In this document: piece after piece, positions 1,348-50,752 of the stretch
Numbering within the stretch: position 1 is the stretch's first letter
Layout of the letters: every line of letters begins with the position of its first letter
DNA from: a virus
Reading direction: 5' to 3' (one strand)
IMG/VR virus record: IMGVR_UViG_3300023063_000001
Coordinates: 19,572-83,571 of that record
DNA length: 64,000 nt
Program-made: the position numbers and the translations under genes
Notes under the pieces: generated by a model
Told to the model about the DNA's origin: nothing
Database searches by the model: none
What the model saw: the letters and a program-made list of their open reading frames with translations, nothing else

Positions 1348-1539
1348 TTGGAGAATAAAATGAGCAATAACGTAAAACTCGAATACACCCTGATCGACCG
1401 TGAAAATGGTAAAGTGTTGAATGTACATTCTTCTCGTGAAGACGCAAGAGATGAGAAACGTGATTGGAAAGCTGAGGGGTTTCAAGTGGATATTATTCAA
1501 TCTCGTTTCCAGCATGTTATCTCTAAAATTATTCGGTGA
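1348..1539 (+). CDS. Hypothetical protein (likely start ATG 1360)
   Basis: GGAG RBS; packed co-directional ORF. Confidence 0.6.
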   Translation: MENKMSNNVKLEYTLIDRENGKVLNVHSSREDARDEKRDWKAEGFQVDIIQSRFQHVISKIIR

Positions 1540-19335: not shown

Positions 19336-20136
19336 TTAATATAGCGTTGCGAACACACCGCCGTTCTTATTACTATAATCTGAATCGCCGTAGTTAAGAC
19401 CCCAACCAAGCCCGTACCCATAAGTCCCGTTAATATCACCGAAACCAAGGGCACCCGGACTGCCATCAAATCCAAAATACTCCCCGGCTTGGTATTCCCC
19501 ATACTTAACCCCTACACCAACTGTCTTAGGAATTAACCTAGAAGGGTAGCCATCTGTGGAGTTAATATAAGCTAACAAGCCTTTTTCATAGTCGCTAAGC
19601 TGTCTACCAAAGAGGACAGTGACGTTAGCATTACCATCTTCTGTAAGGGATGTACCTGTTGTACCAAAGATTAGATTGACTACTTCAAGAAATTCTTCTG
19701 GTGTAGAGGCTGTGGTGTTCTTATAAATCTTAGCTCTGATAAAAAGACGATAGGTGTCATCATCTAAGGCAATATTACCGCCTGTAGGAGCACCGTAGTC
19801 TAGAAACTTACCACCATATAAATTACTACCGTACTCTCCAAAACTTGCTGCTTTAGGTGCTCCGACAAAGCCAAAGAAGGTGTAGAGGTCAGCATTCAGT
19901 AGAACACGGTCTTGACCTACAATACGTCCTATGACATCAAGCTGAGCACCTGTAGCGTTATCAATATCACGAAGCTGAAGAAGATCTTTAAACACTTCCT
20001 GGATATTGGTTTGAGCATCTACTAGAAGTTGCAAATACTTGTCAAACACCGGAGCATATTCTTGTTTAAATTGTTCAGTTGTTCGACTTCTTGCCGTTGC
20101 TAAAAAATCCTCTTCATTAAACACAGGAGTTGTCAT
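19336..20136 (-). CDS. Baseplate wedge protein (DUF2612-like)
   Basis: ATGAQLDVIGRIVG, FFGF, DDDTYRLFIRAKI. Confidence 0.8.
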   Translation of the reverse strand: MTTPVFNEEDFLATARSRTTEQFKQEYAPVFDKYLQLLVDAQTNIQEVFKDLLQLRDIDNATGAQLDVIGRIVGQDRVLLNADLYTFFGFVGAPKAASFGEYGSNLYGGKFLDYGAPTGGNIALDDDTYRLFIRAKIYKNTTASTPEEFLEVVNLIFGTTGTSLTEDGNANVTVLFGRQLSDYEKGLLAYINSTDGYPSRLIPKTVGVGVKYGEYQAGEYFGFDGSPGALGFGDINGTYGYGLGWGLNYGDSDYSNKNGGVFATLY

Positions 20137-34855: not shown

Positions 34856-36376
34856 TTAATTTTCCTTATTTGAAGTAGATGAGTCTCCAGAGCTACCCGT
34901 TGCACTACCCGTACCTGAGGGAAGACCAGCCGCCAACCCTTCACCACTGGAACTGTCTGCTGGACCTAGAAGCTCATTAAGATCATCCTGACTCATATCC
35001 TCATCCACACGATCTGGAAGACCAATAATCTCAGCAATGTAGTTAATGTTCTTAGGGGTAGGGGCTACAAGACCGACAGCTTTAGTTCGTTGCAAAGCGC
35101 TAGAGAGTGCGTCAATATCCGTGGCGTCCACTTCACCATAGCAAAGCTTAGGCATATCTACAGGATTCCAACCATTAAGCTGTGCAAGCTGTTTAATCAC
35201 ATCATTATTGAATACATCTTGAATTTCCATCAAGGCTGTTTCAACTCGTGTGGCTACAATGCTTGTCTTGTTATCAGCAAGGCTAAAAGAACCTGTATTG
35301 TTCTGACCCATCTTCAACACATCAGCAAAGAATGACATTAGAATTTCTGTTGAATACCTGTCAATGACAGCACCAACATCAAAGCTTTTAGCTCCCGTAA
35401 CACCAGCCAACTCAAAGTTGAACATCTTGTTACCAGACTCATCATAGATGGTTGGAAGAATCAAACCCTCTTGTTCTTCACGATGTAAATTACGCATCAC
35501 TTTCTTTAGGTATTCGTAGGTGGCTTTATCAGAGTCAGAAGCACCTTCCACCATATATTGAACAGGGATAGAAAGAACTGGAAGCCCTCTCATATCCTTG
35601 CTTATACCAACAGCTTCAGCTTCTTCTAACGCCTTCTTGAACTTCCACGATTCCCAACAATAGATAAGAGGACTTTCACCTGTTGGGCTATTCTTACGAG
35701 CGTTGGTTCTAAACAACATAAACTTTTCACGGGGGATAAGAACTCCAGGTGAAATCTGTGTTGATTGAACAAACTGTGTAGTTGTTGGGTTATCTATGCC
35801 TGTGTTATTTACTTGCCACTGGCGAACACCTGTTACATTACGATTGTTAGCATCCATTTCCCAACGAGCAATAGTTTCTTGACCACGACAATAAATACCT
35901 TTAAGACCAATCAACCCATCGTTGTAATAAGAGCCATTAATCTTTAATCTTTTTCTAAAAACCTTTTCACAGAGCGAAAATCCGTAAGTGTTAAAAGAAA
36001 TAATCTCTTTAATTGTTTGAAAGAAACTTGTATCTAAGTCTTCAAAAAATACTTCTTCTAGAAACTTCTTTTTAGCTTTCTGATCTGGTGTGGCATTGTG
36101 AGGAACATCAAAGCTCCACTTAGTCTTGCTAATCATTGTTTCAACAAGCTGAATAGCAGAACTTACTGTTGCATCTTTACGCATCTGTTTAAATGTGTAA
36201 ATGCATTGTGGCCATTGCAATTCTTGTCTGTAGCCATCTAGGATATTGTTTCCTAGTTCTACACCCGGTTGACCAGATTCAGTGAACTTGAGACGTGGGA
36301 TTGTAGAATCCGTTCCCGTTGTTAATGTCGGCAACTCTGTAGTTGCCCCCACAGGAGCCTTTTTTGTTGCTGCCAT
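34856..36376 (-). CDS. Portal protein
   Basis: QMRKDATV, YGFS..EKV, PTGESPL, GSFSLAD; follows TerL. Confidence 0.9.
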   Translation of the reverse strand: MAATKKAPVGATTELPTLTTGTDSTIPRLKFTESGQPGVELGNNILDGYRQELQWPQCIYTFKQMRKDATVSSAIQLVETMISKTKWSFDVPHNATPDQKAKKKFLEEVFFEDLDTSFFQTIKEIISFNTYGFSLCEKVFRKRLKINGSYYNDGLIGLKGIYCRGQETIARWEMDANNRNVTGVRQWQVNNTGIDNPTTTQFVQSTQISPGVLIPREKFMLFRTNARKNSPTGESPLIYCWESWKFKKALEEAEAVGISKDMRGLPVLSIPVQYMVEGASDSDKATYEYLKKVMRNLHREEQEGLILPTIYDESGNKMFNFELAGVTGAKSFDVGAVIDRYSTEILMSFFADVLKMGQNNTGSFSLADNKTSIVATRVETALMEIQDVFNNDVIKQLAQLNGWNPVDMPKLCYGEVDATDIDALSSALQRTKAVGLVAPTPKNINYIAEIIGLPDRVDEDMSQDDLNELLGPADSSSGEGLAAGLPSGTGSATGSSGDSSTSNKEN

Positions 36377-36388
36377 TTTGGCTCCTAA

Positions 36389-37975
36389 TTAACGGATGTT
36401 GTTGAGAGGGTTACTGGTTCTTTCGAAACCAAAAGATTGCATGCCGGAGAGGAAGTTTGGTACAGTGCGTTTGGATGCTACAGCTTCGAAGGCATCCGAG
36501 CACGCATCACATAAATCATCGTGACCTGCCTCGCCACTACGACGGGTTCCATCAAACACCTCCACTTGATTGTAAAAAAAGGATAAATCATTGGTTACCC
36601 CGTTTTCAAAATCAGTAGCACAATTCTTTAGAATCTTCATACCACCGTTCATTACAATAGATGCAAAAGGCTTAAACCTATCAGCTTTTTTACCTTGTGC
36701 CCTTAACTGTCTGCACATAAAACCGGCTGATGAAATATCCCTAGATAAGACACTGTTTGTAAACTTAGCCCCAGGGCCTGGGTCCAAAGGGATAATTATA
36801 TCTGTCCTTTTCCCATCTTGATAAGCAGCTTCAAGGATAAAAGGTAGCCACTCTCCCGGAAGAATACGAGTCTGCTTGATGTCATGAATAAAATAAGTAC
36901 CATCTTTGAGGCGACTCATTTTCACTGAAACTGTATAGTCCGGAGAACTGTTCTTTTCACTTTTCTTGGAAAAGGCAAAATCATAAGCGCGGACTGTGCA
37001 ATCAATGTCTGTCCAAGCGGGTTCTTGACTTTCTTCAATGAACCACTCGCGGCGCACCATGCCTGAACCTTCTTCGCGGGCCTCCCACGAGCCATAAAGA
37101 AGAATTTCTTTTTGTACGCGTGGCAATCCTTCAAGGAATGCTATATAATTATCTTCAATGTATGGGTTGTCATAAACAGATGCTGAAATCCAAGCAAACG
37201 AAAGAGGTTTAATTTGCTTCTTATCCGTATCCGGCAACAAGTCGCCAAAGGAATCTCTTCGTCCATGTTTCTCAAACATCTGATCCCGAGATTCAGCCCA
37301 AATCATGTTGTTGCCGTCACGGATAAACCAGCGCACAACACCTTGTTTAGCTGGGTCAGGCCTGCCAAAGAACTCACTTCCCTCTGGATATAAGTACCAC
37401 CCAACCCACTTCTTCACCCAGCTATCAGGCGAGGGGTTCATGGTAGCCCTCATCACCGGTTTCATTTCTGCTTTTGTACGAAGGCGGGACAAAATATAAA
37501 GAAATTGACTTTCTTCAAACTGACAAAGTTCGTCTAGGACCGCTGAACTAATTTGTGCCCCTTGAAAATTGCCCGTATCATCAACACTTTCAAAGTGCGT
37601 AAAGGACACTTCAGCTTTCTTTTCTAAACCCTGCACCGGTCCAAAGTTAATCTTCATGTCCTTGATTCGAACACGAGCATTTTCATCAAAATCTTTATAT
37701 AGGCTTTTAGCTTCGTCCCAAATTGCTCCGGGTTTAGTAAGCATGGGGGTTGTTCGGCGAATCACAATACCCTTATAATTAGGTAAGTGAATATATTTCA
37801 TGTGATGAATAAGCGCGGCAAAAGTCTTCCCTCCGCCAGCTTGCCCCCCATAGAAGATTATATCAACTTCTTCACCTTCTTCTGTCGCATACTTACTACG
37901 TTTTCCTGTACCATCTCTTAGATTTAAGAAGAGGGCTTGAGGTCGGCTTGCGGGGGCAATAATTTGTCCTGACAT
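36389..37975 (-). CDS. terL: Terminase large subunit
   Basis: Walker A GGQAGGGKT, Walker B VLDE, TMNP, RAYDFA, HDDLCDA. Confidence 0.95.
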   Translation of the reverse strand: MSGQIIAPASRPQALFLNLRDGTGKRSKYATEEGEEVDIIFYGGQAGGGKTFAALIHHMKYIHLPNYKGIVIRRTTPMLTKPGAIWDEAKSLYKDFDENARVRIKDMKINFGPVQGLEKKAEVSFTHFESVDDTGNFQGAQISSAVLDELCQFEESQFLYILSRLRTKAEMKPVMRATMNPSPDSWVKKWVGWYLYPEGSEFFGRPDPAKQGVVRWFIRDGNNMIWAESRDQMFEKHGRRDSFGDLLPDTDKKQIKPLSFAWISASVYDNPYIEDNYIAFLEGLPRVQKEILLYGSWEAREEGSGMVRREWFIEESQEPAWTDIDCTVRAYDFAFSKKSEKNSSPDYTVSVKMSRLKDGTYFIHDIKQTRILPGEWLPFILEAAYQDGKRTDIIIPLDPGPGAKFTNSVLSRDISSAGFMCRQLRAQGKKADRFKPFASIVMNGGMKILKNCATDFENGVTNDLSFFYNQVEVFDGTRRSGEAGHDDLCDACSDAFEAVASKRTVPNFLSGMQSFGFERTSNPLNNIR

Positions 37976-42980: not shown

Positions 42981-45900
42981 TTAACTTCCGTAAGTGACGT
43001 AATCGCCATTATAAGTAACTGGACTACCATTATAAGTAACAGCATTCGAAGGTGTTGTTGAGGCAGTTTGTGGAGGGTGAGCAACAATAATTGGCAATAC
43101 AACTGTATTATCAGCGCCACTAACCGGACCAACTGCTGTGATAGAGCTAAAGCCATCACCAGCCGCCCAATACGTACCACTCCATTTGTAAGTGTCATAG
43201 AGGGTTAGGGATGCTGCAAAGTCTGTACGGTAGTTTGCAGAACTGGTGCTTGAATCACTTGGTACACCATATTCACCCATAAACACTTTGACAGTTTTCG
43301 CATCTGTCCACCTACCCACTGCGTTAACATACAGAGGCATACGGTCACGAACATCTTGAGTCCATGCAGTTGTATATGCACCGCTGTAGTCAAGGTAGTG
43401 GTGAAGGGATAGTTGTGTCTTGTTGAGTGGGTCAATCCAAGGGACATCAGGCCACCAACCATAACAAGAACCGAATGCCATCAAACCTGAAGCTTGATCA
43501 CCCTCCCACAAGCAATAACCCGTATAACCTGCGTTACGAACAGCAGCAATTGCAGTGTTTGTGGCGGTTGTTATACTTGCTGTAGGAGAACCATCATAAG
43601 ACCAAGTAACATATGGCTGTAGAGTCGACCCTTCAGTAATGTTAAAGTCTTCTACATAACCCATACCTACAAAGCCTTGCATGTTGAAGTTGTAGTACAG
43701 TAGGGTTTGACCAGAAGGCATTGTGAAAGTCAAGCTAACACGGCTACGACTTGTGGTAGCAACTAATGGTATGTTACCGAGTGCAACACCGCTAGCTGAA
43801 GCATACCCACCTGCTGCAAAGTACAGGATGTGAGTACCACCAGTGGCAGTTGACTCGTAGGAGAAGCTAATTGTGTAAGTACTTCCCGCTACTAGCGTAT
43901 CACCACCATCACTGCCATTAATCCTATGGCGAATAGCGTCTTTATACTGGGCTGTTGTAGCTGCCCATGAAAGACGACCTTGACCAGTTGTACCACCAAA
44001 TGAAACGTTAGTGTAAGGTGCAGTTGTAAACCAGTTACTTGTTGTCACTGGATTACGGTTGGTAGGATCGGTCATCAACTGCTTGTAAGGTCTAGCCGTT
44101 GGGTAGTAGTTGAACGCTGTAGAGGCAATTGGTAGACCGGCTGGCTCGTTTACAAAGTCAATACCGTAAAACGCTGTCTTACCTTGAATATAGGTAGCTA
44201 CGTTTGCCCAATCACTTGCCCAAGATGCAACGCTATAGCTGCTTGAACCAAGTTGTACTTGTGCTCCACCCACATAACGTTTGGCGTAGTCGTGACCATC
44301 TAGGATAATTTGCATACCCGTTTGATCAGCATACCCTTGAACCAAATCAATCTGAGACTTACCAGTAGCATTTAATGCAGCGCCTGGGGTATCAAACCAG
44401 CGAGCCAAAAGAATTGGCAAGCGAATGATGTTAAAACCTTTAGCTTTCCAATACTGGAAGTTTGCCAAGGTTGGGAGGAAATAGTTTTGACCTGGGGTGC
44501 CTGGAATAGTACTTTCACTATATTCCATACCACTTAGGTTAACACCACGCACGTAATAAGTTCCTGGGTCAGTACTTACAATAACTGTAGGATCATCCAC
44601 ACGACGCCAATTAGTCCCATCTGAATAAATATTATAGGCATAACCACTTGCTGGAACAAACATTGCTGTACGATATTTATACGTTGCAGCAAGGGCTGTA
44701 GTAGTTAGTTGAGTGATACCCAATACTAGAGGTTGACTTGAGGCTGCTGCTAAAAGAGCAAGAATCTTATCAATCGAGTATGTTACGTTTGAGCCACTTG
44801 TAGCCGCATCATTAACCGAGGGTTTTACTGATATGGCTGAAGCGAGTGCTGCTGGTTGTACGGCTGTACCTGCCAATGTACCTTGGGCTGAAGTAGCTGC
44901 TCCAACGTCTGTGGCGGCTAATGTAATAGTTGTACCAGTCTTACCATTTACTGTCTGAACAGCAGTGTCGGCTTTAGCACCTTGAGCGCTGCTTGCTGCA
45001 CTTAAATCTGTTGCAGTTAGAGTGACAGTAGGGCCAGCTTTACCATTTACCGTAGTGACTTTAGCATCAAGGGCAGATTGCAAACCACTCACTGTAGAAA
45101 TTGCTTGCACACCTGTGTGCGTAGTACGATCCCTTAAGAGAGCATCTGTACTGTTTGCTGTAGCACCCGTAGCAACACTAGCAACCTTGGATTGATCGGC
45201 TGTGGTGTAATCATTGGTGGATAAACCTTTACCAGTAACTGTTGCTTGTTTAGCGTCAAGTGCTGGCTGCAACCCCGTAACAGTGCTGATAGCCTGAACA
45301 CCCGTGTGGGTGGATCGATCACGCAAAGATGCATCACTACTGTTTGCTGTAGCGGCTGTTGCAATACCAGAAAGTTTTGTCTGTTCTGCTGTAGTGTAAT
45401 CATTTGTTGAAAGCTGTTTACCTGAAACAATAGCAACTTTTGCATCTAAAGCAGGTTGTAAGCCATCTACAGTACTAATAGATTGAGTACCAGTCTGGTT
45501 AGCCCGATTCAGAAGGGTCGCATCAGGACTGTTTGCTGTAGCTGCTGTTGCAATGCCTGCAAGCTTTGCTTTATCCGCATCTACATAAGCATTGGTGTTA
45601 GCGTTTGACTCATATGAAGTCTTTACTTGTGCAGGAGTTAGGGCAGGAGAACTGCTGCTAGTACCCAACTGCCAAGTATTATCACTTGTACGCCAGATGT
45701 AGAATAAGGCAGGCGTACCAGAGTTATCTACGAAAGCATAGTCACCAGCACGAGGATTTGTAACACCTGATGTTAGTGCTGCAAGGCTTACAAAGCTACC
45801 ACGAAAAGAGGCTGTATCAAGAGTACCAAGCTTAGTCTTTTCAGCAGTGGTGTAGTCGTTTGTAGAAAGACCCTTACCAGAGATGAAATTAACTTTGGAG

Positions 45901-46595
45901 TCAATAGCTGTCTGCAAACCATCAACTGTTGCAATAGCTTGAGTGCCAGTCTGATTTGAACGGTTTAGTAGAAAAGCATCGGCACTGTTTACAGTGGCAC
46001 CTTGAGCAATGGTGGCTAGCTTTGATTGTTCTGCTGTGGTGTAGTCATTGCTTGACAAAACTTTACCAACAACAATATCCACTTTAGCTGTAAGGCTAGA
46101 TTGAAGGTTGTTGATAGTAGAAATATCTTGTGTGCCTGTATGATTGGCACGGTTTTTAAGGTTTACATCTGTATCGTTGAGTGTAGCGCCTTGCTGTATA
46201 GTGCCGAGCTTGGTTTTGTCTACAATCGTGTAGTCGTTGCTACTAAGAACTTTGCCTGCAATCTGCTGTACAGCAGTGGTAGCTAGCAAACCTTGAGCGG
46301 CTGTGGCAGCACCAACATCATCTGCCTCAAGAACAACAACACCAATCTGACCGTTTACAGAGTCTACAAGACCGTCACCACCGCTACCATTGCCATCAGC
46401 ACCAGCTTTAGCTAGGATATTCCAGTAGGCTAAATCACTGACAGATACGCCTTGAGATATTTGAATAGCAACATAACTGCTACCTGCAAAGCCTACAGCA
46501 TCATTTAATGCATAAGACTTAGTTGAATCATATTGACCCCGCCATACTAGGCCCGGATCACCTTTTACATAATTGCCTAGAATAGGTGGTAGCAT
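42981..46595 (-). CDS. Fibre-like protein: repeat stalk plus C-terminal GH5 glycanase with inserted CBM-like domain
   Basis: RGVNLSGMEY, FNIIRLP, ILDGHDY, NEP, HHYLD, MGEYG, YWAAG; ~60-aa GK.LS.NDYT repeats. Confidence 0.85.
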   Translation of the reverse strand: MLPPILGNYVKGDPGLVWRGQYDSTKSYALNDAVGFAGSSYVAIQISQGVSVSDLAYWNILAKAGADGNGSGGDGLVDSVNGQIGVVVLEADDVGAATAAQGLLATTAVQQIAGKVLSSNDYTIVDKTKLGTIQQGATLNDTDVNLKNRANHTGTQDISTINNLQSSLTAKVDIVVGKVLSSNDYTTAEQSKLATIAQGATVNSADAFLLNRSNQTGTQAIATVDGLQTAIDSKVNFISGKGLSTNDYTTAEKTKLGTLDTASFRGSFVSLAALTSGVTNPRAGDYAFVDNSGTPALFYIWRTSDNTWQLGTSSSSPALTPAQVKTSYESNANTNAYVDADKAKLAGIATAATANSPDATLLNRANQTGTQSISTVDGLQPALDAKVAIVSGKQLSTNDYTTAEQTKLSGIATAATANSSDASLRDRSTHTGVQAISTVTGLQPALDAKQATVTGKGLSTNDYTTADQSKVASVATGATANSTDALLRDRTTHTGVQAISTVSGLQSALDAKVTTVNGKAGPTVTLTATDLSAASSAQGAKADTAVQTVNGKTGTTITLAATDVGAATSAQGTLAGTAVQPAALASAISVKPSVNDAATSGSNVTYSIDKILALLAAASSQPLVLGITQLTTTALAATYKYRTAMFVPASGYAYNIYSDGTNWRRVDDPTVIVSTDPGTYYVRGVNLSGMEYSESTIPGTPGQNYFLPTLANFQYWKAKGFNIIRLPILLARWFDTPGAALNATGKSQIDLVQGYADQTGMQIILDGHDYAKRYVGGAQVQLGSSSYSVASWASDWANVATYIQGKTAFYGIDFVNEPAGLPIASTAFNYYPTARPYKQLMTDPTNRNPVTTSNWFTTAPYTNVSFGGTTGQGRLSWAATTAQYKDAIRHRINGSDGGDTLVAGSTYTISFSYESTATGGTHILYFAAGGYASASGVALGNIPLVATTSRSRVSLTFTMPSGQTLLYYNFNMQGFVGMGYVEDFNITEGSTLQPYVTWSYDGSPTASITTATNTAIAAVRNAGYTGYCLWEGDQASGLMAFGSCYGWWPDVPWIDPLNKTQLSLHHYLDYSGAYTTAWTQDVRDRMPLYVNAVGRWTDAKTVKVFMGEYGVPSDSSTSSANYRTDFAASLTLYDTYKWSGTYWAAGDGFSSITAVGPVSGADNTVVLPIIVAHPPQTASTTPSNAVTYNGSPVTYNGDYVTYGS
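45050..46270 (-). repeat. About five degenerate ~60-aa coding repeats (GKxLSxNDYT..KL..AT.NS.DA.L..R..HTG.Q.ISTV.GLQ.ALD.K)
   Basis: Visible in the translation of 42981..46595. Confidence 0.85.
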
Positions 46596-46946: not shown

Positions 46947-48692
46947 TTATGCCCAAGCTGTTTGTAGAACACTGTTGTAAGTGCTTGCAAGAAGAGGAGC
47001 ACCGTTAACACCGCCACTAGGATGTGTACCATCACCAGTTTGTGAGTTGGCAGTTCCGTTAACAATCCACTTACTTACATCTGTACCTCGTACAGCATCA
47101 TTAACAACAACAGAGTCATATTTAGTAGTGGTGATCAAAGCATTGAACTGTGCAACCACTTGGCCTGGGTTCCAGTTTGCATTGATTGTTTGGTTAGCTT
47201 CAGTTACGAAACTATCTGTGGATGTGGTACGCGGCAACAGACGTGAAATGGAAGCCTTAACACCAGCCTTAACACCTGTAGCACCTTTATATCGAGCAAC
47301 GAATGCGTCGATATTAGAAATAATAGATGCTGCTGTTGGCGGTGTGCTGATACCAAAATCGTTAGTACCCACCATCACATGCAAACCGTCTGGTACGTAT
47401 TTGAAATAAGCCAAAATACGAGCATCAGTTATTAGAGATGTTGACAGAGCGCCTGAGATACCAAAGTTAATGGACGCAGCAGGCGTTGGAAACAATGCCA
47501 ATGCACGTTGGAAGAATCCACCACCAAGGTATCCTGGGTTCAAGTCGTTATAGCCAGATTCAATTGAGTCGCCCCAAGCGGCATAAGACTTGATGGTAGC
47601 ATCTTTGAAAATACCAATTAGAATTGGTGCATAAAGATTACCCGCACTAACCGGAGCAGTGCCTGTATAGCCTGTCGTAGAGTTAGCCAACGAATCTACA
47701 CTTGGGACTGTTGTTTGTGTTGAATCGTAAAACCAACCTGACAAGTTAGACTGCCCGTACAAGTTACGTGGGCTTGTTGGGATACTTCCATTTGTTGGAA
47801 CTGTTGCTTTCATTTTGAAGAACAACACTGTTCCAACAGGAATTACACCACCTGTAAAACCCAAGGCCGTTGGTGTGATCATGTCACTAATCAGGTTGCT
47901 ACCATTGGTCACAACACCTGTACGATTGCCTGAAAAGGTTACAGGAGCAGAAGTGGTAGTTGTTTGAAGGCTAGCCTCTATGATATTAATATCATTACCA
48001 AGGTTTGTGCCCGTACCTGTGTTAGTGTTGGGTGTGTACCATGCCGGAAGGTTTAAAGCAACACCTGTAGCATCACCCGATCCTGTAATCATTTTCACAG
48101 GAACGTAGTATGTGGTTAGGGTGGAGGATGTGGTGGCAATACCATCATTCATCGGATTCCAACGACCCAACGCTTTAACTGTAGCGCTTGCAGCAACCAC
48201 GTTACCAGATACAGAAGTAGTGACACCGCCTGTAGTAGTTGTGATGTCAATAGTGGGTGTACCAATAGCAACACCTGCAACAACACCTGAACTGTTAACA
48301 GTGGCGATAGTTGGGTTGCGAGAGGAGTAGGTGACTGATTGACTAGCGCCTGTAGGACCAACCACGGGGGTAAGTTGTACAGTACTACCAACCGCTACAG
48401 CGAAGGGATTAGGCGTTACAGAGATAGATGTTGGCAAGATAGGAGGGGTATAGATTGTCCCATCCATTTTACGCCAGTTAATCGCATCACTCAAAGCAAG
48501 GAACGGAGGATTACCATCTGTTACAACCACAAGCTCGTTAGCATGATTGGCTGCAAGGTATGTGGTGCCTAATGAAGCACCCGTTTGTGTGGTAATACCT
48601 GAATCGTATGCACCCGCAAGAGCAGCCCTTACAGGACCAACACGAGTGATTAAAGCGGCTTTATCATTACTAGATAGGGACATACATATCAC
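46947..48692 (-). CDS. Ig-like (Big_2) domain plus SGNH esterase
   Basis: PTSISVTP..VGSTVQL..YSSRNPTIATVNSSGVV; GDSIESG, NFGISG, GTND, DGTHP. Confidence 0.85.
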   Translation of the reverse strand: MICMSLSSNDKAALITRVGPVRAALAGAYDSGITTQTGASLGTTYLAANHANELVVVTDGNPPFLALSDAINWRKMDGTIYTPPILPTSISVTPNPFAVAVGSTVQLTPVVGPTGASQSVTYSSRNPTIATVNSSGVVAGVAIGTPTIDITTTTGGVTTSVSGNVVAASATVKALGRWNPMNDGIATTSSTLTTYYVPVKMITGSGDATGVALNLPAWYTPNTNTGTGTNLGNDINIIEASLQTTTTSAPVTFSGNRTGVVTNGSNLISDMITPTALGFTGGVIPVGTVLFFKMKATVPTNGSIPTSPRNLYGQSNLSGWFYDSTQTTVPSVDSLANSTTGYTGTAPVSAGNLYAPILIGIFKDATIKSYAAWGDSIESGYNDLNPGYLGGGFFQRALALFPTPAASINFGISGALSTSLITDARILAYFKYVPDGLHVMVGTNDFGISTPPTAASIISNIDAFVARYKGATGVKAGVKASISRLLPRTTSTDSFVTEANQTINANWNPGQVVAQFNALITTTKYDSVVVNDAVRGTDVSKWIVNGTANSQTGDGTHPSGGVNGAPLLASTYNSVLQTAWA

Positions 48693-48915: not shown

Positions 48916-49083
48916 TTAAAACCAAAAAGTACGATTGCCACTAACAAGATTCAAAATCAAGCCAACAATAAATACTACTAGAAGAATTTTCAATAGCAAA
49001 CCAACAGTACCGGCGATTACGAACACACCGAACAGTGGTAGTACAAGAGCTAGAATCAATAGTACAAGAATTAGATTAACCAT
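48916..49083 (-). CDS. Small two-TM protein (55 aa), DUF1328/YtjA-like
   Basis: GAGGA RBS; IAGTVGLLLKILLVVFIVGLILNLVSG. Confidence 0.6.
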   Translation of the reverse strand: MVNLILVLLILALVLPLFGVFVIAGTVGLLLKILLVVFIVGLILNLVSGNRTFWF

Positions 49084-49095
49084 TTTTATTTCCTC

Positions 49096-49515
49096 TTATT
49101 CGTTTTCTTCATACCCAACTTCACCGAGTTTAGGGGTGTAGTTAAGATTCAATCTAGTGACAGGAACAAGCTTTAGGATTTCCGCAGCGTCTTCTTCCTC
49201 TTCATCGCGTTTGCCTTCAAGACGTAGTTTAGTGAGAGTGGACTCTTCCTGAGAAGCAGCACGGTCTAAGGAAATGATACTAGTTATCACCCACTGACTT
49301 GTTGAAAGTTGTTTAGCATCAACATCCCTACCTTCAACACTATCTTTAATGTTCTCTAGAGCTTTAGGCTCAATTTCACGCAGCTTGGCCGCTGTATCAC
49401 GCAGCTTAGACTTCTGTATGCGAATTTTACTATTTGATTTAGTGTTACGGTTACTACGCTCCCCATCAAACTGTGTTGAGCGTTGTGCTGGACTAGGTGT
49501 CTTTTTGTTAGCCAT
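49096..49515 (-). CDS. Putative terminase small subunit
   Basis: Basic N-terminus (STQF..RSN), helical core, acidic tail; first gene of the packaging-direction cluster. Confidence 0.4.
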   Translation of the reverse strand: MANKKTPSPAQRSTQFDGERSNRNTKSNSKIRIQKSKLRDTAAKLREIEPKALENIKDSVEGRDVDAKQLSTSQWVITSIISLDRAASQEESTLTKLRLEGKRDEEEEDAAEILKLVPVTRLNLNYTPKLGEVGYEENE

Positions 49516-49536
49516 TTTAATTACCTATAATTGTTC

Positions 49537-49755
49537 ATATTTTTAAGGAAGCTCGTAGACAATACGTCTTACAATATTCAATAGAAGGAGAATCCTTAAA
49601 AATATAACTTCCAAAAGAGGAGGGCAATCAGAAGTTATAGGAGGCAAACACGCAGGAGGGAACGTGCGCCTTTAACACAAGACTAGAGGAGAAGGGAGGA
49701 TAGTCTTGTGGATGAAGACAGAGCTTTATGGAGGATTTACTTCTTAGCGCTCATG
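49537..49755 (-). ncRNA. Multi-hairpin RNA with CCUCC-containing loops
   Basis: Four to five stems with anti-SD loops; G.U extensions favour the - strand. Confidence 0.6.
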
Positions 49756-49764
49756 CCGGTGAAT

Positions 49765-50139
49765 CTATTGCTTTGGTCCGACGTATTCTAAAGTAAACAT
49801 ACGATTTCCCATCTCATCAGTAATGGCAGGCAAAATCATTCCTTCACTCTCACCATTATTAATTTTTCTAAGCTGTTCTTTTAGAAGTTTGTAAATAGCC
49901 AGATCTTTTTCTTTTGCTGATTCTTGCATATATTGAATAGGTACATGAAGAACATATGCACCATTACAGTCTTTAAAATCAGTAACAGCTACAGCTTCTT
50001 GTTCTTCATATAACTTAAGTTTTTCATAAAGCTCAATAGCCATACTACGATACATAGGGCCATCATTATGCTGACGAGGGCCTGCGTAGTGTGCAGAAAG
50101 ATGGGCAGCAACAATAGAATGTTTTTCAAAATCAGACAT
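49765..50139 (-). CDS. Stand-alone portal-fragment paralogue (124 aa)
   Basis: About 37/77 identities by eye to the portal segment at 35403-35626; GAGGA RBS. Confidence 0.85.
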   Translation of the reverse strand: MSDFEKHSIVAAHLSAHYAGPRQHNDGPMYRSMAIELYEKLKLYEEQEAVAVTDFKDCNGAYVLHVPIQYMQESAKEKDLAIYKLLKEQLRKINNGESEGMILPAITDEMGNRMFTLEYVGPKQ

Positions 50140-50164
50140 TTTTATTCCTCAAAATTAAAATAAG

Positions 50165-50375
50165 TAAAACAAGAAATCCGGTTTTAGACACACTCCGGCA
50201 AGTGGTTTACAGAGGAAGGCGTACGCATCTATTAGCTAACGAATTTAATCGCTACATCTCTAGAGGAGAACCTTTGCAGGTTCAGCCACTTCCTGATAGA
50301 GAGTGTATTCCTCTATCCGTCTACAGGGTGGAGGGGCCTAATACACAACCAGTCTCCAAATCGTCTTACGCTGTA
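50165..50375 (-). ncRNA. Structured RNA downstream of tRNA-Thr
   Basis: GATAGAG/CTCTATC, GAACCT-GCAA-AGGTTC (GNRA), AGGAAG/CTTCCT closing helix. Confidence 0.45.
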
Positions 50376-50379
50376 AAGA

Positions 50380-50455
50380 TGGTGCCGTCACTAAGATTTG
50401 AACTCAGGACCTACGCATTACAAGTGCGTTGCTCTACCTACTGAGCTATAACGGC
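50380..50455 (-). tRNA. tRNA-Thr(UGU)
   Basis: Cloverleaf, anticodon arm ACGCA-CTTGTAA-TGCGT, GTTCAAA, encoded CCA. Confidence 0.95.
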
Positions 50456-50460
50456 ATATT

Positions 50461-50546
50461 TGGTGGGTGTTGATGGATTCGAACCACCGATGTATCAATG
50501 TACGGATTTACAGTCCGCTGTCTTCGCCACTAGACTAAAAACACCC
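50461..50546 (-). tRNA. tRNA-Tyr(GUA)
   Basis: GCGGA-CTGTAAA-TCCGT, long variable arm, GGTTCGAATCC, CCA. Confidence 0.93.
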
Positions 50547-50551
50547 AAGGA

Positions 50552-50628
50552 TGGCTGGTAGTAGTGGACTCGAACCACTCATCTGTAGATTAACAGTCTA
50601 CGACCCACGCCCGGTGAGATCACTACCA
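50552..50628 (-). tRNA. tRNA-Asn(GUU) with atypical D arm
   Basis: GTAGA-CTGTTAA-TCTAC, GGTTCGAGTCC, acceptor TGGTAGT/ACTACCA, GCCA end. Confidence 0.85.
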
Positions 50629-50722
50629 ATAATTTGAATTAAATACAATACATTTGTTTCTTATTCTATTGATATGCATTCCATACAATACATAAAAGCT
50701 ACTTTTATTTCGCAGTCATACT

Positions 50723-50752
50723 ATTATAGACACATTATTCTAATACTGTCAA
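50723..50752 (-). promoter_or_regulatory. Consensus sigma70 promoter for the tRNA cluster
   Basis: TTGACA-18 nt-TATAAT. Confidence 0.85.

Follow-up and report, generated by a model that had tools for sequence, protein, structure and literature searches.

A multi-hairpin RNA element with conserved CU-rich loops from the tRNA region of uncultured tailed phages

Described systems and the phage element

Small RNAs (sRNAs) that base-pair through C-rich loops are known from several bacteria, among them Staphylococcus aureus RsaE, Xanthomonas sX13, Listeria LhrC and Bacillus RoxS. In this work we analysed a structured RNA element encoded on the minus strand of a 64,000-nucleotide (nt) stretch of phage DNA (hereafter the window; positions 19,572 to 83,571 of the IMG/VR record IMGVR_UViG_3300023063_000001). 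The record measures 83,571 bp, has direct terminal repeats and is covered for the most part by the window. As modelled, the element is 232 nt long (49533-49764, minus strand) and consists of a single-stranded UUCACC and five helices, in the order UUCACC-H0-H1-H2-H3-H4. Its stems are kept by compensatory change while the loop motif stays constant.

Among the closest described systems is the cuckoo/ar14 family of Rhizobiales and Rhodobacterales genomes (RF02344; NfeR1, CcsR/RSs0680). In the available portion of its description, cuckoo RNAs have two to four hairpins and no multiloop, an anti-Shine-Dalgarno (anti-SD)-like loop word, variable stems and a varying number of modules (PMC4615179). The phage element shares with them the variable stems and a repeated pyrimidine loop word, present here in two to four CU loops, and H1 to H3 are simple hairpins as in cuckoo RNAs. 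However, the loop word of the phage family is UCUCC(U) and not CCUCCUCCC, the element falls under the Rfam threshold in the window and goes undetected in 17 relatives, and UUCACC, H0 and a three-way-junction H4 are additional to the cuckoo layout. The setting also differs, since the element belongs to a phage tRNA cluster and is without the terminator-like hairpin that the same portion of PMC4615179 places downstream of the RSs0680 cluster.

The C-rich-loop sRNAs RNAIII and RsaE resemble the element in that unpaired loop words complementary to ribosome-binding sites (RBSs) are repeated in several hairpins; the loops of RNAIII are given as UCCC in the available text of PMC4615179. The phage element displays what characterizes this class, accessible C/U-rich loop words complementary to the Shine-Dalgarno (SD) sequence (CUCCU is complementary to AGGAG), and no sequence or Rfam relationship of the element to these sRNAs was found. 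Whereas C-rich-loop sRNAs are independent genes with terminators and known targets, the phage element is without a promoter or terminator of its own and is known from its sequence. With the T4 RNAs rnaC/rnaD (species 1 and 2) the likeness is one of position beside a phage tRNA cluster: rnaD and rnaC are stable RNAs lying 1 and 6 nt after the last tRNA on the same strand, annotated without a function (NC_000866), and members of the phage family abut a tRNA in 11 of 44 loci. In contrast with the phage family, the T4 RNAs are without CU-rich loops and rnaC ends in a tRNA-like T-arm, and in the window an open reading frame (ORF) of 124 amino acids (aa) parts the RNA from the tRNAs. Searching the T4 region with a covariance model of the element (R1, described below) gave at best 8 bits (E 0.07), on the other strand, with no shared structure or sequence. 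The CsrB/RsmY/RsmZ RNAs, finally, also repeat a short word in their loops, but the conserved strand of the phage element is the pyrimidine one.

A 2023 survey of IMG/VR reported 8,495 covarying intergenic motifs of 29-151 nt, some of them tRNA-like or upstream of genes (PMC10690425); because of these lengths, the whole element of ~230 nt is not among the motifs as such, as far as the available part of the survey describes them, while a single hairpin could be. The phage noncoding RNAs listed in a 2025 review, in its accessible part, are mostly antisense RNAs and prophage sRNAs (PMC12197685). Our search of the literature on phage sRNAs with anti-SD or C-rich loops, and on the loop words themselves, found no such phage RNA. 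On comparative evidence, the element appears to be a member of a previously unclassified phage RNA family. Modular pyrimidine-loop RNAs are known; what is new is the phage and tRNA-cluster setting, a loop word of its own and two extra conserved domains.

Architecture, covariation and loop word

The element fills most of a 249-nt gap (49516-49764) between two minus-strand ORFs, of 124 aa upstream and 139 aa downstream. Its parts are the following.

49533-49764, minus strand: whole RNA element, modelled from the window as R1; found in 43 of 56 related loci, with covariation on 42 sequences
49758-49763, minus strand: 5' single-stranded UUCACC, made of invariant or near-invariant columns in a 24-sequence alignment; follows the stop codon of the upstream ORF
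49717-49757, minus strand: H0, an interrupted 8-bp stem with a 24-nt loop, GCUAAGAAGUAAAUCCUCCAUAAA, which carries a fourth CCUCC in this phage
49676-49710, minus strand: H1, a 10-bp stem (49676-49685/49701-49710) with loop UCCUCCCUUCUCCUC
49642-49671, minus strand: H2, a 10-bp stem with a 2-nt bulge (49642-49652/49663-49671) and loop UCCCUCCU
49603-49639, minus strand: H3 (49603-49611/49631-49639), 9 bp extendable to 12 bp with two G-U pairs, with loop UUGCCCUCCUCUU
49537-49605, minus strand: H4, a 13-bp AU-rich outer stem (49537-49549/49593-49605) with two small inner hairpins and a conserved UAUUG(C) linker

The original prediction, made from the letters of the window, described four consecutive stems, H1 to H4, and the three loops of H1 to H3. 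All of these are present on the minus strand as described; the picture was nevertheless incomplete, as it lacked H0, the UUCACC and the pair of small hairpins inside H4. With this pair H4 becomes a three-way junction, and the 3' arm of H3 shares ~3 nt with its start. The minus-strand RNA of the 249-nt gap has a folding energy of -64.6 kcal/mol (z -5.63), and none of 200 shuffled sequences folds as well. Because the plus strand folds about as well (z -4.92), folding energy alone cannot choose the strand. The element occurs once in the phage's own genome, where it forms the sole cluster of three CU-loop hairpins in 83.6 kb; 37 single CU-loop hairpins are scattered over both strands.

The evidence for the structure comes from its relatives. 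R1, a covariance model built from the window sequence alone (five helices, 61 pairs), gave full-length matches in 43 of 56 non-identical related loci, all on the strand of gene sense, and the sole other match among these loci scored 12 bits (E 0.12). In an alignment of 42 sequences fitted to R1, which favours the structure, both sides had changed together in 60 of the 61 pairs, including 8/8 in H0, 10/10 in each of H1, H2 and H3, and 11/12 in the outer stem of H4. Standard pairs are formed by 93.3% of the cells, compared with 57.7% in shuffled alignments and 38-44% when the structure is slid along the sequence, with 98.5% paired in H0, 94.4% in H2 and 95.8% in H3. The covariation score is 0.715, against 0.177 for shuffled and 0.055-0.086 for slid controls, and none of 500 shuffles attains the score of the real alignment. 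RNAalifold alone, applied to a 22-sequence alignment, predicts H0 to H4 with 44 pairs, 42 of them with compensatory change. Plain MAFFT alignments of the upstream regions misaligned H0 to H3, a difficulty that the covariance model solved; on such an alignment RNAalifold recovered the outer stem of H4, with 14 pairs of which 11 are compensatory. Finally, G-U/U-G cells outnumber A-C/C-A cells (157 versus 52) when the alignment is read on the minus strand, and the minus strand of the window is therefore the RNA strand. The claim of a structured RNA on this strand is thus borne out by very strong covariation across related phages.

Hairpin scans and folds show the same layout, with quite different stem sequences, upstream of most relatives of the 139-aa gene. 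Three of the four complete relatives in which the element is missing from the 1.5-kb flank carry it 2.4-3.5 kb farther upstream (G001, G003 and G004), and the fourth, G002, has a two-hairpin version that R1 missed and that is visible on folding L019. In total, the family counts at least 47 genomic instances. Its carriers form a clade of uncultured tailed phages, mostly contigs of 83-93 kb from soil-type samples (soil, rhizosphere, leaf litter), and the RNA is ~210-290 nt long. Since H2 is missing in 4 of 42 members and H0 has a CU word in several others, the number of CU loops per member varies from two to four. A gapped DNA pattern written for the family recognised just 21 of the 42 known members and was judged too unspecific. 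Among cultured phages, a DNA search with positions 49000-50700 matched only in the tRNA part, and two family members used as queries yielded at most a chance match of 26 nt, in Shigella phage Sf19 (E 0.7). R1 gave no match in the Pseudomonas phages vB_PsaM_M1, phiPMW, vB_PpS_SYP and M5.1, which is weak evidence of absence for a model built from a single sequence; in vB_PsaM_M1 a coding sequence begins 48 nt after the tRNA cluster and leaves no room for the element.

The loops are as constant as the stems are variable. Among the 122 loops of H1 to H3 in 42 sequences, CUCC is kept in 120, UCUCC in 112, CUCCU in 107 and CUCUCCU in 81; CUCCU is found in 40 of 42 H1 loops and UCUCC in 40 of 42 H3 loops. 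Together the loops of H1 and H2 contain 516 C and 486 U for 61 A and 27 G. The loops had been interpreted as displays of the anti-SD sequence of 16S rRNA. They are indeed complementary to SD-type sequence, but CCUCC(U) turns out to be a peculiarity of the window: the canonical core CCUCC occurs in 20 of the 122 loops, and in H3 in 1 of 42, the window's own alone, the conserved word being UCUCC(U). As CCUCC is rare in the loops of the family, the window is an atypical member, which explains its lone sub-threshold match to ar14. Apart from this match, Rfam 15 searched with permissive filters returned only tRNAs and chance matches, and no family at threshold. Conservation extends to UUCACC, to the pattern AAG...AAAUUCUA...AAA within the H0 loop, to the CUUAAAG that links H1 with H2 and to UAUUGC at the junction of H4. 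AGGAGA, the commonest hexamer upstream of the ORFs of this phage (23 of 138), is exactly complementary to UCUCCU, and the base that follows GGAG upstream of ORFs is A in 32 of 56 cases, compared with 40% genome-wide.

Genomic setting

Four features frame the element.

50723-50752, minus strand: sigma-70-type promoter TTGACA-18-TATAAT, a pattern match to the consensus at 12 of 12 positions, directly upstream of the tRNAs
50380-50625, minus strand: cluster of tRNA-Asn, tRNA-Tyr and tRNA-Thr, upstream of the element
49765-50139, minus strand: 124-aa ORF between the tRNA cluster and the RNA in this phage, a copy of a segment of the portal-position protein
49096-49515, minus strand: conserved 139-aa gene with a weak RBS (UAGGU), immediately downstream of the element

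The promoter, identified by pattern matching, is the likely start of a transcript that holds both the tRNAs and the RNA. A second sigma-70-type site, matching 11 of 12 positions, lies at 51588-51560 (minus strand), and the promoter sites suggest that the tRNA-RNA region is transcribed by the host polymerase. The association with tRNAs extends to the relatives: in 11 of 44 loci 1-10 nt separate UUCACC from the 3' end (CCA) of a preceding tRNA, and 21 of 44 have a same-strand tRNA no more than 360 nt upstream of the element. In the window, 615 nt that include the 124-aa ORF separate the element from the closest tRNA upstream. In L031 no tRNA was found upstream of the element within the locus, and a tRNA-Gln (1405-1478, plus strand) lies 6 nt after H4, which ends at 1398, and before the 139-aa gene, which starts at 1501. 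The 139-aa gene is directly adjacent to the element in 43 of 56 loci. This adjacency is broken and the RNA is kept in L032/L076, where a 336-aa ORF intervenes, and in G001, G003 and G004, where 2.4-3.5 kb intervene; the genes lying between amount to 1-3.5 kb in all. Because the RNA persists when its adjacency to the 139-aa gene or to the tRNAs is interrupted, it looks like an autonomous module, behaving as one more gene of the tRNA operon. The element is near the head of a minus-strand block, from ~51.5 kb to 13.7 kb, that holds the structural genes. Two observations concern the sequence just upstream of the element in relatives. L008 (~1020-1140) and L015 (1119-1210, plus strand) have in common a ~90-nt non-coding stretch just upstream of UUCACC, which follows tRNA-Met in L015 and matches neither a tRNA (ARAGORN) nor an Rfam family; and L028 (978-1045, plus strand) has a weak Hammerhead_3 match ~180 nt upstream (26 bits compared with a gathering score of 48.5, E 0.28), which is probably due to chance.

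The 139-aa gene has a UAGGU/AGGA-type RBS in the window and in relatives, and the N-terminal region of its product is basic and conserved. Homologues were found at 7 and then 39 viral loci, at 36 metagenome loci and in 117 protein clusters; the clusters bear no functional name, the few that are named being called 'hypothetical protein', and the single cluster sourced from NCBI has neither name nor accession. A search of 50,697 records from cultured phages returned no match to the protein, and one of 185,579 species genomes no relative. Neither a Pfam family nor, by profile, a PDB relative was found, only a weak PHROG without assigned function, and in Atlas it gave leads below 0.9 (DUF5681 at 0.87) and helical matches with TM < 0.5. 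The proposal that it is the terminase small subunit (TerS) is therefore unsupported, yet not excluded. The assignment of the other neighbour as a mini-portal fared better: the 124-aa ORF aligns over 80 aa, at 48% identity (E 6e-22), with residues 248-325 of the portal-position protein (506 aa; 34856-36376, minus strand). To judge by this identity, an internal piece of that protein, which is encoded beside the terminase, has been copied into an ORF of its own; no relative of the ORF was found in viral contigs. The homologue of the terminase large subunit (TerL), at 36389-37975, lies 11 kb from the element and is ~40% identical to proteins of vB_PsaM_M1 (Ounavirinae), phiPMW and members of Otagovirus. 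Farther downstream, 46947-48692 (minus strand) encodes a 581-aa protein with Ig-like and GDSL/SGNH esterase domains, and 42981-46595 (minus strand) a 1204-aa fibre-like protein with a GH5 cellulase-family domain; both look like tail-associated polysaccharide-degrading enzymes.

Possible roles of the loops

We tentatively favour the view, possible rather than probable as matters stand, that processing yields a stable RNA whose loops pair multivalently with purine tracts of SD type. It would be transcribed together with the tRNAs and cut out as a stable RNA by the tRNA-processing and RNase E-type machinery. H0 and H4 would serve as protective or scaffold modules, and the two to four exposed loops would act as equivalent seeds, pairing with AGGAG(A) tracts of host and/or phage mRNAs and modulating the translation or stability of those mRNAs. 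By analogy, such a mode of action would be like that proposed or shown for the modular C-rich-loop RNAs cuckoo/ar14, RNAIII and RsaE.

Several observations weigh against this interpretation. The only run containing the window DNA is a leaf-litter DNA metagenome, from which it may come, with no RNA run among those found, so that a discrete RNA species is only inferred. Pattern scans detected neither a promoter nor a Rho-independent terminator belonging to the element in the window, and no consistent one in L025, L064 and L030; no terminator-like site was found on the minus strand between 48800 and 52100. The absence of both signals sets the element apart from most trans-acting sRNAs. Moreover, in 47 of 47 cases it precedes the 139-aa gene and the structural operon and has the same orientation as these, a constancy that a purely cis role fits equally well. 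The loop motif also matches the SD consensus of the phage itself, and because of this complementarity an unselective pairing would inhibit phage translation as well. Ranking of targets, which covered phage genomes, singled out nothing in this phage beyond self-antisense sites. When orthologs of four genomes were ranked together, the start region of the primase-helicase came first (percentiles 0.05, 0.09, 0.01 and 0.14), and its Fisher combination (p ~0.002) was lost on correction for 49 ortholog groups. The gene at the primase-helicase position encodes 583 aa and lies outside the window (G000 16199, plus strand), with orthologs in G001, G003 and G004; judged by complementarity to the CU loops of the phage concerned, its start region is within the top 1-14% in each of the four genomes, a suggestive ranking. 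No complementarity was found between the loops and the three tRNAs of the phage. The more specific proposal that the RNA brings about a translational shut-off or an early-to-late switch is not supported: nothing shows either, and since UCUCCU is complementary to the phage's own AGGAGA, a blockade of RBSs without selectivity would reach phage mRNAs too.

An explanation that we consider somewhat unlikely, and take seriously, is that the element is a cis-acting leader, functioning only within its carrier transcript as a new 5' end of the mRNA after tRNA processing. There it could shield the downstream mRNA against 5'-end-dependent decay, bring ribosomes to the 139-aa gene with its weak SD (for instance through S1 binding to the pyrimidine loops), or make RNA polymerase, over the ~36 kb of the structural operon, resistant to Rho or to terminators. 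Models for such antitermination are HK022 put and elements that antagonise Rho. A leader would account for the constant position upstream of the 139-aa gene and of the minus-strand block, for the lack of a promoter and a terminator, for a location exactly where untranslated tRNA genes give way to the first coding genes, and for the fact that the 139-aa gene has merely a UAGGU/AGGA-type RBS. However, the RNA is kept where its linkage to the 139-aa gene is broken (L032/L076; G001, G003, G004), and in L031, where a tRNA stands between H4 and the gene, cleavage by RNase P would detach the element from the mRNA. In addition, a strict loop word in two to four repeated modules exceeds the needs of a 5' stabiliser. 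We think it rather unlikely that the loops act by binding a protein, the RNA titrating or scaffolding that protein as a decoy or sponge. The candidates are S1, Rho (whose ligands are YC-rich), Era or another KH-domain factor of the 16S 3' end, a toxin with endoribonuclease activity towards CUCCU-like sites, and the neighbouring 139-aa protein through its basic N-terminus. The two to four equivalent, accessible, G-poor loops would suit such a function, unpaired nucleotides that are conserved in H0 and at the junction of H4 point to tertiary contacts or to contacts with a protein, and the gene for a protein with a basic and conserved N-terminus is adjacent in 43 of 56 loci. Yet a protein that reads composition, such as Rho or S1, would not need a near-invariant CUCC, and the low conservation of CCUCC, the word of the 16S 3' end, counts against a strict 16S mimic. 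A particular form of this explanation, which we judge distinctly improbable, makes the element a phage-made decoy and not an antisense regulator, its stem-locked pyrimidine loops capturing a host factor that reads single-stranded CU-rich RNA. That factor could be Rho, in which case the long untranslated tRNA-ncRNA leader would not trigger termination before the 36-kb structural operon, or a ribonuclease toxin or ribosome-maturation factor recognising the CUCCU-containing 3' end of 16S rRNA.

Two further explanations concern the origin of the element and its strand. That it is a horizontally acquired member of the alphaproteobacterial ar14/cuckoo family (NfeR1/CcsR type) is very improbable and largely refuted. 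This idea was suggested by a full-length sub-threshold match to RF02344 (49602-49716, minus strand; 26.1 bits, E 0.0049 in a 401-nt search) and by the modular architecture that cuckoo RNAs share with the element, neighbouring hairpins whose stems vary and whose loops carry an anti-SD-like motif (PMC4615179). Nonetheless, 26.1 bits is far under the gathering score of 58.8, the match is specific to the window, as none of 17 relatives gave any at E up to 1, and the defining loop word CCUCCUCCC is not in the loops of the window; furthermore, H4 forms a multiloop, a shape that PMC4615179 describes as absent from cuckoo RNAs. The alternative proposed in the original prediction, a GGA sponge of the CsrB/RsmY/RsmZ kind on the plus strand, started from the TATAAT at 49526-49531, is hardly tenable. 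The elements on which it was based are real: the TATAAT is there, the plus strand of 49537-49755 contains 12 GGA where about ten had been announced, and it folds well. All 43 related matches are however on the strand of the flanking genes, the threefold excess of G-U/U-G over A-C/C-A cells holds on the minus-strand reading, and no Csr/Rsm family was matched on either strand at E up to 10. No sigma-70-like site is called on the plus strand there, and what reads TATAAT on that strand is, on the minus strand, AUUAUAGGUA, the conserved RBS region of the 139-aa gene.

To our knowledge, few noncoding RNAs of strictly lytic phages are understood. The suspicion already exists that phage tRNA clusters counter attacks by the host on the translation apparatus. 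The comparative support for the element is unusually clean, with covariation in 60 of 61 pairs in a family of at least 47 instances associated with phage tRNA clusters. A practical limit is that no cultured phage carrying the element was found by sequence or with the single-sequence model. Loops that pair with ribosome-binding sites would make the element a multivalent regulator of translation initiation encoded by a virus; loops that bind a protein would make it an RNA decoy and, were it to capture a host factor as described above, an RNA-based counter-measure within a phage tRNA cluster. In either case, loops that can be changed separately from stems offer a mutable handle on the purpose of the non-tRNA genes in phage tRNA clusters.

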